Assembly: GCA_013265495.1 (NCBI GenBank)
Contig: MU057584.1
Span: forward strand, 185,782-224,788
From: Vicugna vicugna
Lineage: Eukaryota
Length of the DNA: 39,007 nt
Direction: 5' to 3'
Part shown: one piece after another, positions 1 to 32,562 of the stretch
How the letters are laid out: every line of letters begins with the position of its first letter
How positions within the stretch are numbered: the stretch's first letter is position 1
Translations under genes and position numbers: made by a program
Notes under the pieces: model-generated
Databases searched by the model: none
The model's input: only the letters and a program-made list of their open reading frames with translations
What the model was told of the DNA's origin: nothing

Positions 1-572
1 CAAGACATGGATATGGAGACAATCTAAACGTCCACCGACAGATGACTGCATAAAGAAACCGTGGTGTGTGTGTGTGTGTATATATATATGGGATACTACT
101 CAGCCATAAAAAATGAAATAATGCCATTTGCAGCAACATGGTTGGACCTAGAGATTATCATACTAAGTCAGACAGAGAAAGACAACTATCATATGCTATC
201 ACTTATGTGTGGAATCTTAAAAAATGACAAAAATGAACTTATTTACAGAACAGAAACAGACTCACAGACATAGAAAACAAACATATGGTTACCAGGCGGA
301 AAGGGAGTAGGAAGGGATAAATTGAGAGTTTGAGATTTGCAGATACTATTACATATAAAATAGATAAACAAGTTTCTACTGTATAGCAAGAACAGGGAGC
401 TATATTCAATATCTTGTGGTAACCTATAATAAAAAACAAATGTATGTATGTATATATATATATGATTAAAACACTTTGCTGTACACATTGTAATTTGACA
501 CATTGTAAACTGACTATATTTCAATTATAAAAAAAAGAAAGAAAGAAAAGGAAAAAAAGAAAAGAAAAGAAG
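1..572 (+). mobile_element. LINE-1 3' end (ORF2 C-terminus, 3'UTR, A-rich tail), artiodactyl/camelid type
   Basis: ORF2 C-terminal motif YYSAIKNEIMPFAATWLDLEIIILS; typical 3'UTR (tatattcaatatcttgt, cattgtaaactgactata); (GAAA)n/A tail at ~527-572. Confidence 0.9.
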
Positions 573-5480: not shown

Positions 5481-6101
5481 AACCTCTCTCTGACAGCAGT
5501 TTCTCTCTAGGAGATAAAATACAATCACAGAAACATGACAATAGTGTGTTGGAGACACATTACCCAGACCTGCCAAGAGAGCATCTTTCCCTGAAACCAT
5601 CCATGGCCTAAAAGTGACTTGCCTCAGTGAATGTTAGTATAATCTTTTAATTTTTATAAAAATGCTTTTTAAAAGGTATGTACAATATTGCTTTGAGTAA
5701 GGGGACAGTTTTTTCCTACACTTATCCCGTTCATAGGTATTTTTCCCAACACGGAATCTGTGTCCATAATCTGCCCCTTTGATATATTCTTACTAGTTCT
5801 AGCATTTGTAAAAACTCCCTCCTGGGCCACCTGTGATGAACATGATGTTTCTTTTTTTCCCTGAAACCACTGCCACATCATTTCCTTAGGGACTATTCCA
5901 CTGTGCAAGAGACTCTGGAAGACTGGAATTTGTGAAGTTTGTGACTGAGCGCTTTCCCTGTTTACCAAACTTCCAGATCTCCCTTCCCGTGCGGACCAGC
6001 CTCTACTGCAGCCCTTCCGACACATCACGTCTGTATCGATTTTCTCCTGTGTTGGCTCTGAGATGAACAGAAAGTTCTGAGTTCTACCCGGAGATCTCCA
6101 C

Positions 6102-8671
<2,570 letters not shown>

Positions 8672-8994
8672 CTAAAGGGGTAAAGGTGACTTGTGAGAAG
8701 AAGTACAAGACTGGCTCAGGGACATCAGGCTCTCAGACCGGGACCAATAATGCCCTAGAGAAAACTTCAGGTTTATGTATCACAACTGTCATGGTGCTTC
8801 TTTTTATGTTTGAAAAAAGGAAGAGGCTTCTATTGATAAACTTGGAAGCTCAATGTTAATATAATCCTGTTAGTAACAAACTAGTCTCATCATAGAGCTG
8901 CCAAGCAAAAAATAAATTCTGAACAGGATTTTACCCCCCAAATTTTATTTCTTCACTTAATAATGCTGTTGTTGCTAATAATAACAATATTAAT

Positions 8995-12199: not shown

Positions 12200-12808
12200 T
12201 CTTTATAGCAGCCCGGCCTTCCAGAGCAGATTCCTGCCAAATCCAGCCACCACTTGAGTGTCTAAAAGGTATATCGAGACAAAAAAAGCCTCATTAGAAT
12301 TAAGTCTTTGAGAGGGGAGGGTATAGCTCAGTGGTAGAGTGCATGCTCAGCATGCCCGAAACCCCAGGTTCAATCCCCAGTACCTCCATTAAAAAAAAAA
12401 AAAAAAAAAAGAATTGATTCTTTCCTCCCAAACTGATCTCTCCTTACCCCATGGGAGTAAACAGTACCATCTACCTTAAAGTTATCCTGGATTCTTCCCT
12501 TTTCCTTTCTCACACTATTCATAAAAAAAAAAGCCTGCCTATTATGATCCCCAAATACCGTTCAAACCTACCCACTTCGCCCCGTCTCTGCTTCCATCTC
12601 TCTAGTCTGACTCATCGTTATCCTTTGCTTAATGATGCAGATACTTTTCCTCAGCTCAGCCCGTCCCTTAAAGTACTTGAAAGCCATTGTCTTGTCAGCC
12701 CCGTGAGGGCCGGGATGTTGTCTGGTTTGTTCTTTGATATCCCATCAGTGCTCAGAAGGTTTGGTCTACAGTACGTGTTCAATAAACATTTGCTGAACGA
12801 ATAATGAA
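12200..12808 (+). mobile_element. LINE-2 3' region, interrupted by a SINE
   Basis: Ends with the L2 terminus ccgtgagggccgggat...tcaataaacatttgctgaacgaataatgaa. Confidence 0.7.
12310..12409 (+). mobile_element. tRNA-derived camelid-type SINE (short form)
   Basis: ggggagggtatagctcagtggtagagtgcatgctcagcatg...ggttcaatccccagtacctcca + poly(A); TSD agaattaagtcttt (12296-12309) / agaattgattcttt (12410-12423). Confidence 0.9.
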
Positions 12809-15947: not shown

Positions 15948-16087
15948 GGTCTCCTCTCCTAGGTTTTGGGAGCAGCAGCAATTGTATTTATGCTCTGATC
16001 TTCCCAAACTGGAGAAGCAGAAAAGCCAGCGGTTCTTCATTCTTGAGTCTCTCTAATCTCTGACCAGGAGCTTCGGATGGATACAAG

Positions 16088-16260
16088 GCCCTACTGATGA
16101 GCCTGGGGAACTATATTCAATATCTTGTAATAACCTATAATGAAAAAGAACATATATATATCTGAACCACTACGCTGTACACCAAAAACGAACACAACAT
16201 TGTAAATCAACTAAACTTCAATTTAAGAAAAAAAAAAAAGAAAGAATAGGAAAGAAAAAA
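16088..16260 (+). mobile_element. L1 3' end fragment
   Basis: gggaactatattcaatatcttgtaataacctataatgaaaaagaa...cattgtaaatcaact..acttcaat + A tail; same family as 1-572. Confidence 0.85.
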
Positions 16261-17090: not shown

Positions 17091-17244
17091 GGTGGGGAGG
17101 GGATACCTCAGTGATAGGATGCATCCTTAGCAAGAGCAAGGTCCTGGGTTCAATTTCCAGTGCCTCCATTAAAAAAAAAAAAAAAAAGAAAAAAAACCTA
17201 ACTACCCCACCCCCCCCTCCCCGCCTCAAAAAAGAAAAAAAAAA
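17091..17244 (+). mobile_element. tRNA-derived camelid-type SINE
   Basis: ggtcctgggttcaatttccagtgcctcca B-box region; TSD atctcctggcc at 17080-17090 and 17245-17255. Confidence 0.88.
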
Positions 17245-21575: not shown

Positions 21576-21874
21576 CATTTACTTATTGATGTGTAGTTGA
21601 TTTCTAATGTTGTGTTAGTTTCTGATGTACAGCATAATGACTCAGTTATATACACACACATTTTTAATATTCTTTTTCATTATAGGTTATTACAAGATAC
21701 TGAATACAATTTCCTCTTCTATACAGTAGGACTTTGTTGTTTATCTGTTTTATATATAGTCATTTATATCTGCTAATCCCAAACTCCTAATTTATCCCTC
21801 CCCTGTCCCCTGTGGTAACCATAAGTTTGCTTTCTAAGTCTGTGAATCTGTTTCTGTTTTGTAAATAACTTCAT
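21576..21874 (-). mobile_element. 5'-truncated artiodactyl-type L1 3' end
   Basis: Reverse complement of the family at 1-572; exact 12-bp TSD atggtcaccttt at 21564-21575 and 21875-21886. Confidence 0.88.
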
Positions 21875-22000: not shown

Positions 22001-22535
22001 CATTAGCGATTTCTGTGGAAGGTAGCCTAACAAAAGACCACCAACTTAGTGGCTTAAAACAACTACTTCTTTATGCTCAGGGGTTCTCTGGGTCAGGAAT
22101 TTAGAAAGGACACAACAGGGATGGCTTTTCTCTGTTCTGTGATGTCCGGAGCCTCAGCTGGGAAGACCCACAGGCTGGTGGCAACTTGACAGCTGGGGAG
22201 TGGAATCACAAGACTGGAAGTTGATGGCAATGGTCGGCTGGGACCTCAGCTGGGGCTGTCAACTCCAATACCTACACACGGCCTTTCCATGTGGTTTCCT
22301 GGGCTGCTTCACAGCAGCGTAGCTGTGCTCCAAGTGTGAGCACCGCAGGAGAACAAGGGAAAGCTGCATCACTTTCTATGACTTAGCATCAAAAGTCACA
22401 TATAGTGTCGCTGTCATCGTCACAAGCCTGCTCATGCTCAAGGACAAAGAAGATCAATCCCCTTCCCCCAACCTCTCAATGGAAGGAAAGTTAAAGTCAC
22501 ATTTTAAGAAAAGCATGTAATTTGAGAGGTGCTAT
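22001..22535 (-). mobile_element. MaLR LTR (MLT1-type, probably MLT1F-like)
   Basis: acttagtggcttaaaacaac...tgggtcaggaattt...gcctcagctgggaagac...ggctgggacctcagctggggctgtc...aagtcaca. Confidence 0.75.
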
Positions 22536-22619
22536 GTTAGTTCCTGGGGCACAGGGACCTGGTCTGGTATTGCCATCTAAGACCTGACAGGGCACCTGGT
22601 TTGGGCCAGGAGCCACTCT

Positions 22620-22890
22620 GAGAACAGGACAATTTCTTCTACACCATTATCCCATAGGGGACCTAAGTGCAAACAGCCAGTAGTATGGGTTTGACAAAAT
22701 TAAAGAAATCCAACAAAAAATAAATAAAGACCCCTCTGAATTTTTGGAAAGGATTTATCAGGTTTATAGCAGATCCCAAGGTCCCTGAAAATGCTAGAAT
22801 GCTAAATATGAGAAAACTGCAAAAATTAGATGATGTATTTGGAATAAACCCTTCACAATTGGTAGGTGTTGCTTTTAACATAACAGGGAA
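22620..22890 (+). pseudogene. gag: ERV gag capsid remnant
   Basis: KIKEIQQKINKDPSEFLERIYQVY (major-homology-region-like), then ADPKVPENARMLNM/RKLQKLDDVFGINPSQLVGVAF..NRE. Confidence 0.8.
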
Positions 22891-23805
22891 ACACTCATTC
22901 TAGAAACTCATCACTTTACCCAAGATTGTCCTTATATCCATCACCACCTCACTCAGCTCATGTTTTGGCTTCCTTGATCCTACACTGTCCCTCTTTGTTT
23001 TAGAGAAGTTTACCAGCTGGATATGTGGGACTGACTCATGTTTGGCAGTATCCTATGCCAGTTCTTCACCACCACTGGGCCTACTCAGTGGTAAAATGCC
23101 ACATCTCAAGAAATGGTTTCTGAGTTTTGGAAACTCCCTCACATCAGAGTGCTGCATGTTCTTAGAGCCTGTCCCAGTCTTGCACATTAAGAGGTGATGG
23201 CCCTCCAGAAGGTGAGACACCCAGGCGGCTTTCAAGAGAACAGATTTTTGTATTGATATCAGCAGCTTCCATTAAGTTAGGTTCCACGATGTGCTATTCT
23301 AGTCTTGGACCCTTTTTTCCCAAGGAGCCTGAAAAGAAAGGAACCAGCAGTACAGTTATTGGTATGATCGCTGGATGTTGTGCTTTGTCGGACTTGGGGG
23401 CACCTTTGGTTTTTGGAAAAAATCATGTACATATTGGAGCACAATTTGTTCGTAATAAGAAAGTTTGTCTCAGGAGGAATTACAGTTCTCTTTGGTGTAT
23501 GGGAACAAGGCTTAAAAGAACCAGTGTTTATTGCTATGCGTTCTCTAATGAGAATAGCTGGAGCAGTTAAGTTTTGCTGCAGCAATGACTGCATCTTCTA
23601 TCCTTACAAAGACATGTCCAAATGATGTGGCGACAGTATTGGGAAGTCTTGACACTTTTTCTGGACTGGGACTAATGCTAGGGCTTCCTTTTGGTGACTT
23701 CTTGTACCAATCCTTTGCCTATGTAGTGCCTTTTATTTTTCTGGGATACATAGTTCTACCATCAACATGTGCATTTTACATAATTATGAGTCTGATCCAG
23801 GAAAA
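22884..23805 (+). pseudogene. SLC18B1: Intronless, circularly permuted SLC18B1 (MFS transporter) retrocopy; candidate circRNA-derived pseudogene
   Basis: 22884-23193: KHSF*KLITLPK..SLSSCFGFLDPTLSLFVLEKF..GLLSGKMPHLKKWFLSFGN..PVPVLHIK (~aa 224-330); 23194-23805: GDGP..GETPRRLSREQIFVLISAAS..LGPFFPKE..VATVLGSLDTFSGLGL..NYESDPG (~aa 15-225); stops and frameshifts present. Confidence 0.9.
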
Positions 23806-23861
23806 TAATTAAAAAGGTGGGAGCCTCTCATATGGTAAAAAGAGAGGAATACTCTGATAAA

Positions 23862-23954
23862 TGAAGAGGCTCAGGGGCTCCCTTGGACTTGAGGCCCCCA
23901 ATTCCAGTTTCCCCACAGGAGCCCCGGGTAACTTTGACAGTGGGGGGGGGCCAA
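23862..23954 (+). pseudogene. pro: ERV gag stop and protease N-terminus
   Basis: TGA (23862-23864) followed in frame by RGSGAPLDLRPPIPVSPQEPRVTLTVGGGQ; breaks off just before the expected FLVDTGA active site. Confidence 0.8.
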
Positions 23955-25215
23955 TGGTATGAGAATCCAAAAAAGGCTGCCTCTTTGGTATTTCAACTGG
24001 TATTGAGTAGTACTATTAACTCTTTGGGAAAAAATAGCCAAAATAAAGCTTTGTCAAATTTATTAGTACTGTCTCTGGTCCTTGAAACACTTGAATAATT
24101 GTGATGCTATTTAAGGAAAATAAAGTTAAATTTCAGGTCTTGCCATTAAGAACAAAGTAGATAGGAGACTTGGCTTTACCTGGGTGTGTACTTGAATATT
24201 CTGCACCCGAGGCGTCTGACCTCTGTCACTGTGGCAAACTCAGGAGCAGCTGCAGCGAGTGGTTACTCCGCATGCACCGCTTAGTTTAGTTTCATGTTTG
24301 CATATGGATGGTTTTTAAAAGTCCTTTTACATATTTAGTAACTATAATGCGTCACAAGTTAATTTAACTGTAAGTTTAGTTTAAATCAAATATGCAAAGT
24401 TTACTTGAGTTTTGAAAGCAAATTTTGACTGTTTACAGAATTGTTTAAATTACAGTTTCTCAGACACGTGAGCTTTCCTTTTGGGCCTTTTGCAGATGCA
24501 TGTTAAGGGCTTAGCGTTAGGATCTGCATATGTGGGGCACTGAAAAGACAAAGGACTTACAAATAAACTTTCGCTTATATTTTATTCCAAGACTGGCACT
24601 GCTGTCAATGGAAAGTATTTTTAACTAATCTGTTATTGAGAAATTAATCATATTTTTGCATTTCAGCCAAAATAAGGACCATAGCTAATATTCTGTAAGA
24701 TACAGTTAATCCGTAAACCTGAAATTCATGTTCCATATGATCTGAACAGTATTCTCCAACTTAAAATAAAAATGCAGTATTGATTCAGAAAAGTCTGTAT
24801 TTTTCTAACAACTTCACTTTATATTATTTTGTTGGGTTGCATAAAACAGGAATTATATTTGTTTTAAAAGCTTAAGAAAATTATTAGTTGAGTTTATTTT
24901 ATTTGTACATCATTGCACATGAGTCCATGCCACTTTTTTAAAAAGGTGGACACTATTTTAAAGTGATCTTTAATATGTTTTTTATATAAACAAACTTGAA
25001 ATAGTTTACTTGGTGGTCTTTGCTTATCAAGTCCCATAAGTCTTGTATTTGTTTCTCGTAAGTGGAACCCTGGACCATAACTTCATGTTAACTCTTTGCT
25101 TTGTCTTTTGGGTGGCCTAACATACATTAACATGAAGGATGAACATTTTAAAACTTTTTTTCAAGAAATTATAATAATGATTTACTTTATTAATAAAAAA
25201 GGAATCTTTTGTTGT
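23955..25215 (+). other. AT-rich non-viral insert resembling a cellular mRNA 3'UTR
   Basis: No pol-like translation; T/A-rich; AATAAA at 25192-25197 near its right end; replaces the rest of PR, RT and RNaseH. Source not recognised. Confidence 0.5.
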
Positions 25216-25269
25216 GCTTTCATGAGCACTTACACAGGTTACATGTGCTATAGAAACACTGGACACAGT

Positions 25270-26028
25270 CCAAAGTGGTTAAAGCCCTCCTTAATGAAAT
25301 TGTCCCCCGAATTGGACTGCCTAGTACTCTTCAAAGTGATAACAGGCCTGCTTTTGTCTCTAGCATAACCCGACATGTGTCTAAAATATTGCAAATTAAC
25401 TGGAAACGACATTCATCCCAGAGACCACAATCAACAGGAAAAACCAAGAAAATAAATCATACGTTAAAAAAGAGTATTGCTAAAATATGTTGAGACTAAT
25501 TTAACTTGGGATAAAGGCCTTGCCAGTTGCCCTGCTACAGATCAGAGTGGCTCCTAGAAGCAGGCTTAAATTAAGCCCCTTTAAAATATCATATGGTAGG
25601 CCATTTCAGGCGTCCCCCAGGCAGGAGAATCTACAAATGCTCTTAAAGTCCTAGCAATTGCCAATTATGTTAAAACTTTGGGCACTCTACTAACCTCTGT
25701 TCATGAGTTTGCCTCCAACAGGTCTGCTTATCCAACTGAAGTAGCCTTACATCCCTTCCGACTTAGAGACTGAATCTTGTTTAAAATCTGGAGGGAACAA
25801 GGGCCTGAGCTTCAGCTGACTGTAAAGTGGACAGGACCACATGTGGTATTACTTACCTCGCACTCGTCTGTCAAGTTAGCTGGGGTAAAGCCATGGATTA
25901 ATCACATGTAGATTAAAGCAGCACCACCATCATTGGAATCAGAAAACAACCCGACTCCTGAGAGGCCTGGGGAACAGTGGTTTTGTGAACCCTTAGAAGA
26001 CTAAAGGTTATGCTTTAAAAAAAGATAA
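25270..26028 (+). pseudogene. pol: ERV integrase remnant
   Basis: VVKALLNEIVPRIGLPSTLQSDNRPAFVS..WKRHSSQRPQSTGK..NHTLK..LSPF..YGRPF..KWTGPHVVLL..VKPWINH..CEPLED. Confidence 0.9.
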
Positions 26029-26412
26029 CTATTGAGATTATAATTTCACTGTAGCTGAAAAAAGGTCAACCTATTTTGTTTAATCTTGTCTAAATGAATA
26101 GCACAGGAATCTAGTGTAATTATGTACAGTAAGAAAGTTAACATTAAAAGATATGTACTGGAAACTGGAACCAAAACTCCAAGTTCAACAAAGTACTATG
26201 GAGTCTTATTAGGTTGAAGTGGTTGTAAATAAAGAAAAAAAGAGAGAGAATAATACTATCGACTAAAGATTCTAAGAAATGTTCCCTGTACGAGGCTGAT
26301 CAATGCTATTCCATAATCACCCCTTCATTGCCCCTGCTCAGCAGGAAGTAGCCAGAGCGGCCATCACCCCTCTTCCCATAAGACTGTGGAATGGACATTG
26401 ACAGAGGTGAAT

Positions 26413-26902
26413 TGTAATAGGAAAGAGCAAACCTGACTCCATATTAGATCTGCTCTTTTGGCTTTAGCCCTATACCCCGTTTTCTAGACTTAGTCTTGCT
26501 AGCTCTGTACCTTTTGTAAAAGAATGTTGCCTACAGCCTGAAATATACAGGAGAGCCTATTCTCAAGGGGTATTAACACTTACGCATTCATATAAAGATA
26601 ACAAGTGCAGAATAGAAAATAACATTTGTTTTGTTGGAGGCTTATAGGGACCCATGTGGACACCTGCAAGAACAAAGAACTGCACCAAGAAGTTTGCAAA
26701 AACCAACCACACCCTCTCCCACTTTTAGTATAAAAGGAGCCTGAATTCTGACTTGGGGAAGATAGATCTCCAGGAGATGAGTCTGTCATCTCCCCTGTCT
26801 GCCGGCTTTCTGAATAAAGTCACTATTCCTTGTCCCAACACCTCATCTCCCAATTTATTGGCCTGTTGTGCAGCGAGCAGAATGAGTCTGGACTCAGTAA
26901 CA
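26413..26902 (+). mobile_element. ERV1 3' LTR (490 bp)
   Basis: TGTAA...TAACA termini; degenerate polypurine tract acagaggtgaat upstream; TATAAAA 26729-26735; AATAAA 26813-26818; ERV1 pre-LTR motif cagcaggaagtagccagagcgg at ~26339. Confidence 0.85.
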
Positions 26903-28001: not shown

Positions 28002-28105
28002 GGAGGAATGGAAGGAGGGGGAAAGGGTGGAAGTGAAGGAGGGAGGGAAGAAGTGAGGAAGGGAGGGAGGGAGGGAGGGAGGGAAGAAGGAAGGGAGAAA
28101 GGAAG
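28002..28105. repeat. Purine-rich (GGAA/GGGA)n simple repeat in ZNF180 3'UTR
   Basis: ggaaggaggggg...gggagggagggaagaaggaagggagaaaggaag. Confidence 0.9.
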
Positions 28106-28132
28106 ATACATATAACCTAAAAGATTTCCAAA

Positions 28133-29899
<1,767 letters not shown>

Positions 29900-32305: not shown

Positions 32306-32562
32306 TTTTTTTTTTTTTTCAATTGAAGCATAGTCAGTTTACATGTGTCACTTTCTGGTGTACAGCATCGTGTTTCAGTCATACATATATGTACATATAT
32401 TCCTTTTCATATTCTTCTTCATTATAGGTTACTACAAGATATTGAATATAGTTTCCTGTGCTATTCAGTAGAAACTGGTTGTTTATCTATTTTATATACA
32501 GTAGTTAGTATCTGCAAATCTCGAACTCCCAGTTTATCCCTTCCCACCCCCTTCCCCTGCTG
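32306..32562 (-). mobile_element. 5'-truncated camelid-type L1 3' end
   Basis: Poly(T) head; close reverse complement of 300-525; degenerate TSD cagacggggtattctt / cagaacgggtgttctt. Confidence 0.88.

Follow-up and report, generated by a model that had tools for sequence, protein, structure and literature searches.

The window, by which we mean the whole 39,007-nt stretch of DNA analysed, carries at 22884-23805 of its forward strand an intronless copy of the gene SLC18B1. Exon-by-exon alignment to the parent gene of the same genome places its exons in the order 7-8-9 / 2-3-4-5-6-7', where 7' stands for a repeated start of exon 7. This insert lies within gag of an endogenous retrovirus of gamma type that has undergone deletions (22532-26902), in place of the nucleocapsid zinc-knuckle region. 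The features of the element and of its insert are the following, exon identities being given relative to the parent exons:

22532-22883, + strand: what remains of gag (C-terminal part of capsid), the window copy of the element being truncated at its 5' end
22884-23008, + strand: exon 7, starting at its nt 10 (parent 22876123-22876250, 89.8%)
23009-23101, + strand: exon 8 (83% to parent 22878201-22878294), with limits equal to the parent exon limits
23102-23193, + strand: exon 9, ending at the back-splice donor (80.4%)
23194-23327, + strand: exon 2, beginning at the back-splice acceptor (83.8%)
23328-23423, + strand: exon 3 (83.7%)
23424-23495, + strand: exon 4 (81.9%)
23496-23641, + strand: exon 5 (74.8%)
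23642-23788, + strand: exon 6 (79.7%)
23789-23805, + strand: start of exon 7 repeated over its first ~17 nt, which closes the circle of exons (AGTCTGATCCAGGAAAA vs parent exon 7 AGTCTGATCCAGGGAAAC)
23806-23945, + strand: end of gag and start of protease, after the nucleocapsid; 81-84% identical to relatives without the insert and reading ...PQEPRVTLTVGGGQ
23946-25268, + strand: 1.3-kb segment of one subfamily only, of which 24100-25080 is present at only 8 loci, including the window
25254-25908, + strand: integrase remnant, core and C-terminal domain (Pfam rve and MLVIN_C, both below cut-off)
26413-26902, + strand: 3' LTR ending ...GTAACA; an alignment of 521 columns gives 73.5% identity with the 5' LTR carried by the copy on contig C2710

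The eight exons of the insert are joined without introns at 75-90% identity to their parent counterparts, and every joint inside the insert is a clean exon-exon joint. In a protein search, the translated block 23193-23450 matched 74 proteins at E <= 0.001 (best E 2.9e-31), nearly all of them named SLC18B1 or, by its older name, C6orf192; the few remaining names were generic MFS or hypothetical protein. The open stretch 23558-23809 gave a Pfam MFS_1 match (E 2.6e-5) that lies below the cut-off. Neither exon 1, nor exons 10-14, nor a poly(A) was found in the window insert, the A-rich run that follows 23805 being viral and present as well in relatives without the insert. A Gag-SLC18B1 fusion protein was rejected, since the gag reading frame is closed by a stop once 30 codons of the insert have been read in the window copy (31 codons for the sequence of parent exon 7).

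A search of the window's own 2.03-Gb genome placed the parent on contig C9280 (G000:C9280:22860663-22884280), where tblastn with two full-length orthologues delimited 14 coding exons and an ATG at 22860663. AG/GT sites bound its exons 2-9 in 8 cases out of 8. These exons sum to 946 nt, i.e. c.44-c.989 counted from the ATG, and their translation is 100% identical over 314 residues to SLC18B1 of Vicugna pacos and 97.5% identical to Camelus proteins, which marks the genome as one of camelid type. Exons 2-9 are single in the present gene, where exons 2 and 9 stand 17.8 kb apart. The back-splice joint of the insert falls on two borders of this exon set, position 23193 being the last base of exon 9 (parent ...ATTAAGAG/gtaact) and position 23194 the first base of exon 2 (parent ...ttcaag/GTGATGGC). 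For breakpoints placed arbitrarily in the 1.4-kb coding sequence, a rough calculation puts the chance that both would fall on one of the 13 exon borders at ~(13/1371)^2, or ~1e-4. The joint is out of phase (AAG AGG TGA), since 946 equals 3 x 315 + 1.

A preliminary description of this DNA, made from its letters only, had recognized a permuted intronless SLC18B1-like sequence with a clean, out-of-phase joint at 23193/23194, had placed that joint at the exon borders c.989 and c.43/44, and had noted that a start-codon exon, any sequence past aa 330 and a poly(A) were missing. The alignment bears out all of these points, and neither end of the joint lies in mid-exon; ends in mid-exon were what that description had named as evidence against its own reading. 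Its core proposal, a template in which exon 9 was spliced back to exon 2 and which held exons 2-9 only, is upheld and further strengthened by the exon map and by the genome-wide matches given below. The sequence features of a circRNA-derived pseudogene (an intronless copy, a back-splice-type joint, exons of the circle only and no poly(A)) are all found in the insert. Inverted repeats that would pair intron 9 with intron 1 are missing from today's parent gene, in which one weak 36-nt match lies 6.5 kb upstream. This counts weakly against a circle, as the gene is seen tens of millions of years after the event.

A 922-bp query detected 20 further loci in the window's own genome at 73-85% identity, and a protein search returned the identical 21 loci, window included, spread over 19 contigs. 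The 5' joint is present in 19 of the 21 (the two others being a copy with a deletion and a copy truncated at its 5' end), the back-splice in 18 (one deletion, two truncated copies) and the 3' joint in 19 (two truncated copies), while the 17 near-full copies form one clade with a support of 98/97. Because the 5' joint, the back-splice and the 3' joint are common to these loci and the copies group in a single clade, they point to one capture event, after which the insert would have spread as a passenger to 21 loci. What the preliminary description took for a lone circularly permuted retrocopy is actually such a passenger in the gag gene of an endogenous retrovirus, at one of 21 loci that apparently descend from one capture. 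The retroviral flanks, the ~20 sister copies and the exon 7 start repeated at the 3' end lay outside that first account.

The full-length SLC18B1 protein (P0037) used as query gave 81 matches across the genome, and those outside the parent locus all fall within aa 32-355, which corresponds to exons 2-9, with an MFS paralogue of 26% identity as the one exception. For exons 10-14 the parent gene gave the only matches, and this genome-wide protein search returned no copy with exon 1 or with exons 10-14. Normal-order copies, the other finding that the preliminary description would have counted against itself, were likewise not seen among the 81 matches. These results bear on the idea that an SLC18B1 retrocopy first sat inside the retrovirus in normal order and was only later brought into permuted order by a rearrangement of the DNA. 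Nothing was found in favour of such a rearrangement, whose breakpoints would have had to hit two exon borders (the ~1e-4 chance calculated above) and whose joint is common to all 18 loci retaining the region. We consider it extremely improbable.

The host element was assigned to the gamma-type (class I) endogenous retroviruses on the basis of Gag_p30, RVP and RVT_1 matches in relatives without the insert, rve and MLVIN_C matches in the window and an LTR of ~520 bp. Among these relatives, L029 matched Pfam Gag_p30 at 36.3 bits and L027 matched RVP at 22.0 bits, both above the cut-off; RVT_1 reached 37 bits, also above the cut-off, and zf-CCHC 18.6 bits, below it. The window element itself gave rve at E 2.6e-4 (25254-25490) and MLVIN_C at E 4.4e-4 (25774-25908), both below the Pfam cut-off, and L033 gave MLVIN_C at E 1.6e-5. 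The family bearing the insert lacks ~330 nt of capsid found in the relatives as well as most of pol. In six of seven sister copies, homology to the window stops precisely at base 22532, while these copies remain alike for at least 1150 bp further upstream. The window copy is without the first ~1.3 kb of the element, and no 5' LTR was found in the whole window. The 23946-25268 segment yielded no Pfam match and no other source in the genome; the 8 loci that carry it are all copies of one subfamily, to which the window belongs.

The retrocopy is flanked on both sides by internal sequence of this one LTR element, with gag on its 5' side and the end of gag, the start of protease, the integrase and the LTR on its 3' side. 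Past the 3' LTR, the flanks of the five copies examined are unrelated, which argues that these are separate insertions of an LTR element. In the one copy with both LTR ends, on C2710, the 4-nt flanks differ (TTCA and AGAG), a mismatch that weighs little either way at a decay of ~14-20%. Integration of each copy is accordingly read from LTR ends and unrelated flanks, not from target-site duplications. The window locus was made by the integration of an LTR element and not by direct retro-insertion of a circRNA at this place. Direct entry would mean that circSLC18B1 was reverse-transcribed, for example by the LINE-1 machinery, and inserted here as a stand-alone circRNA-derived pseudogene. The back-splice joint, the missing poly(A) and the restriction to exons of the circle would all agree with it. 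Both flanks, however, consist of retroviral gag common to the 20 other loci and to relatives without the insert, the ends of the insert are identical across loci, the locus is bounded by an LTR, and neither a target-site duplication nor an A-tail was found around the insert ends in the window or in the aligned copies. The flanks common to other copies refute stand-alone insertion, to which we give next to no credence.

The Jukes-Cantor distances of the 17 near-full copies to the parent exons range from 0.139 to 0.294, with a median of 0.183 that is also the value of the window copy. The two LTR ends could be compared in one copy, with 78% identity across 116 nt. Applying a generic mammalian neutral rate and allowing for silent changes of the parent itself leads to a rough age in the order of 50-70 million years. 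A protein tree was built from 22 orthologues, the parent and the 17 copies, which were translated in the frame of the parent with each break written as X; the partial copies L007, L021, L024 and L025 were left out. In this tree the copies fall inside Cetartiodactyla (96/98) and outside the camelid clade (100/99), and their fork with pig and with hippo, cow and whales is poorly separated. A tree grouping the copies with camelids was not rejected (AU p 0.488). A placement next to this genome's own gene was disfavoured (AU p 0.029, delta lnL 33.7), this group having been named after the tree was seen. Together, the tree placement and the AU tests suggest a capture near the base of the artiodactyls or on the early camelid stem. 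The copies are decayed, and their sequences give no sign of present function.

Relatives without the insert indicate what stood at this place before the capture. All six of them, whose flanks are 67-84% identical, have 176-250 nt of native gag between the two joints, including a CCHC knuckle, and this stretch is absent from the copies that carry the insert. As the relatives have native gag there, the insert is a replacement of viral sequence and not an interruption of it. On the 5' side, the passage from viral to SLC18B1 sequence takes place in a switch zone at 22884-22893 (CAGGGAAACA), where the relatives read AACAACAGGGAACA; on the 3' side, it takes place at 23798-23808, where the relatives read ...AGG[A/C]AAACAATAAAAG... 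Both joints fall within one stretch of ~10 nt in exon 7, which reads ...GATCCAGGGAAACAC... and resembles the native viral sequence at both sites, the motif common to the two being CCAGGGAAACAC of exon 7. The microsimilarity comprises CAGGGAA (7 nt, exact, in L029) and CAGGG (5 nt, in L027 and L031) at the 5' site, and AGGCAAACA (8/9 in L030) and AGGAAAAAA (in L032) at the 3' site, all lengths being approximate because they are read from decayed relatives and not from the true ancestor. By a rough estimate, microsimilarity of at least 5 nt would occur by chance at one joint in ~0.3% of cases. The insert runs from nt 10 of exon 7 around to about nt 17-19 of exon 7, which amounts to 940-956 nt, counting the ambiguous motif, against 946 nt for the circle. 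The insert is one turn of the 946-nt circle. Internal flanks on both sides, replacement of part of an ORF, microsimilarity at both fusion points and several insertion sites, all seen in this family, are the features of LTR-mediated retroposition.

Altogether, it seems likely that a 946-nt circRNA made of SLC18B1 exons 2-9 was copied into a gamma-type retrovirus or endogenous retrovirus by template switching of reverse transcriptase, a process that fits the finding of both insert ends in one exon 7 stretch resembling both viral sites. We propose the following course of events. Back-splicing of exons 2-9 would have produced the 946-nt circular RNA, which would have been packaged together with viral RNA. 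During minus-strand synthesis, the enzyme would have reached the AGG[A/C]AAACA motif that directly follows the nucleocapsid zinc knuckle, and there moved from the viral RNA to the similar CAGGGAAACA in exon 7 of the circle. It would then have copied exactly one turn, through the start of exon 7, exons 6, 5, 4, 3 and 2, the back-splice and exons 9, 8 and 7. Back at its own starting point, the enzyme would have met a template already removed by RNase H, and this end of template would have forced it off after one turn. It would then have returned to the viral RNA at an upstream CAGGGAACA motif, where capsid ends. The circle, sense-oriented and out of frame, would thereby have taken the place of ~180-250 nt of gag.

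The resulting element would have been defective, being also without part of capsid and most of pol while keeping its LTRs. Since the family lacks most of pol, its spread presumably depended on helper retroviruses, which would have carried it in trans to at least 21 loci. All copies would have decayed afterwards, the window copy at 22532-26902 being a 5'-truncated descendant that probably has no present function.

Capture at the DNA level would account for much of the same evidence. The circle would have been reverse-transcribed, perhaps as a rolling-circle multimer, and the cDNA end-joined by microhomology into a broken retroviral copy with a deletion of ~200 bp; the product would then have been transcribed and spread. 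Microhomology at both joints and a deletion in the host element fit end joining equally well, and multimeric cDNA would also yield an insert of one unit between two like motifs. End joining, however, would produce the sense orientation of the insert with a chance of only 1 in 2, whereas copy-choice requires it. It would also call for reverse transcription supplied from elsewhere and for a break in an element still transcribed and packaged, and the route documented for such chimeras is template switching (PMC5131818). Capture at the DNA level is unlikely in our view, though worth keeping in mind.

The shape of the template is a second point at which the copy-choice reading could be varied. The two template switches might have captured a linear, non-colinear SLC18B1 RNA, either produced when trans-splicing repeated exons or transcribed from a gene in which exons 2-9 were duplicated in tandem as a polymorphism. 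Such an RNA would hold the identical joint of exon 9 to exon 2, and both switches could have been drawn to the exon 7 motif in successive repeats. Yet exons 2-9 are single in the gene as it stands, no copy has any exon from outside the circle, nothing on a linear template would force the enzyme to exit after exactly one unit, and exon-repetition transcripts are far rarer than circRNAs. We judge a linear template quite doubtful and favour a circular one; the switches would have taken place inside a particle.

If the copy-choice reading is true and general, circRNAs would be packaged into retroviral particles. The case could further be the first in which the entry of an exonic circRNA into the germ line is recorded at sequence level, with a retroviral reverse transcriptase switching to a co-packaged circle, making one turn and being forced back, and with one turn between the same motif as its signature; the considerations for and against this wider claim seem to us evenly balanced. 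It predicts inserts that are one turn long, that have the same motif at both ends and that lie in sense orientation. Here, one capture kept in 21 copies next to uninvaded relatives allows the donor site, the acceptor site, the copied length and the spread to be read directly. It also carries a warning: what looks like a "retrocopy" in one isolated stretch of DNA may be the passenger of a repeat family.

Several known systems resemble this family in part. LINE-1 processed pseudogenes are intronless copies of host transcripts with colinear exons, a 3' poly(A) and a target-site duplication. The SLC18B1 insert is likewise an intronless copy of a host transcript, but its exons are non-colinear, it has neither a poly(A) nor a target-site duplication, and its flanks are retroviral and not random. 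Retroviral oncogene capture joins host RNA to a retroviral genome through recombination, as reverse transcriptase switches templates, and yields a product that is defective and helper-dependent. The SLC18B1 family shares with it the host RNA in a retroviral genome and a defective product that would depend on helpers. Its capture, however, would need no read-through chimeric transcript, and the insert is out of frame, with no fusion protein and no selectable function, and is ancient and fixed in the germ line. The mouse ETn elements are non-autonomous endogenous retroviruses that spread in trans with MusD. Like them, the present family combines deleted coding capacity with intact LTRs and many copies; unlike them, it carries a passenger derived from a host circRNA.

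The closest parallels are two types of retrocopy described in 2016. Dong et al. (Cell Res; PMC4897178) reported circRNA-derived pseudogenes, among them 33 copies of mouse circRFWD2 with few A residues at their ends and LTR-enriched flanks, and in this paper, which defined the class, the mechanism leading from circle to DNA was called "mysterious". Both families are intronless and multi-copy, have a reversed-order exon joint, exons of the circle only, no poly(A) and LTR flanks. In the present case, the parent is SLC18B1 and the genome of camelid type, and the host element, the switch sites, the one-turn length and the single origin are resolved, whereas the mouse paper gives LTR enrichment only. 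Our survey of the open-access literature found no SLC18B1 circRNA, no SLC18B1 pseudogene and no retroviral capture of a circRNA, in agreement with the preliminary description, which knew of no SLC18B1 case.

LTR-mediated retroposition, for its part, was described by Tan et al. (Genome Res; PMC5131818), who reported fusion points with microsimilarity on either side, internal ORF sequence that had been replaced, and retroposition that went on in further cycles. The likeness extends to a retrocopy within an LTR element, a replaced part of the ORF, microsimilarity at both ends, no poly(A) and a non-autonomous chimera that spreads. The templates in their paper are linear mRNAs, usually represented by partial copies, and the word "circular" is not used there, whereas the template of the SLC18B1 family would be a closed circle, with both switches in the same ~10 nt and one complete turn between them. 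By its sequence, the SLC18B1 family would be both a circRNA-derived pseudogene, a member of a small and rare known class, and a chimera of LTR-mediated retroposition, and the case links these two phenomena. If the mechanism proved general, multi-copy families of circRNA pseudogenes, including mouse circRFWD2 with its LTR-rich flanks, would be retroviral passengers and not independent retro-insertions.

The family of deleted gamma-type endogenous retroviruses to which the window copy belongs is larger than the 21 loci bearing the SLC18B1 insert, since further fragments (L026 at C6043:6526200-6529600, together with matches on contigs C9623 and C3193) lack the insert region through truncation. 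Among the insert-bearing copies, L004 and L008 lie about 487 kb apart on the same contig, C2710, are each other's closest relatives in the protein tree (100/100 support) and show the lowest divergence from the parent gene (Jukes-Cantor distances K of 0.139 and 0.141 from its exons). This pattern could reflect duplication within the contig or a region in which mutations accumulate slowly.

Besides the insert, the element contains a segment that is confined to the window's subfamily (8 loci, the window counted) and that replaces the native protease sequence kept by the other copies. This segment, for which no Pfam match was found, may be either another captured sequence or viral sequence that has been rearranged. 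The window holds this segment, two arrays and two sets of repeats:

23946-25268: AT-rich 1.3-kb segment within the element
28133-29899, minus strand: C2H2 zinc-finger array, 588-residue open frame with 12 fingers
6100-8732, minus strand: second array of the same 84-bp period
12314-12413 and 17094-17193: a pair of A-tailed tRNA-like short interspersed elements that are 79% alike
21611-21803, 32344-32545, 211-485 (minus strand) and 16083-16248 (minus strand): four copies of an interspersed repeat, 72-78% identity

Two of the four interspersed repeat copies were considered as the LTRs of the element, an identity that was rejected.

The 84-bp tandem periodicity at 28041-29264 is the trace of the C2H2 array (zf-H2C2_2, E 7.9e-116). 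The second array is related to it at 60-67% identity but is broken across several reading frames, and so probably represents a zinc-finger gene that has decayed. Given the open 12-finger array, the retroviral fragment therefore sits within a zinc-finger gene cluster.
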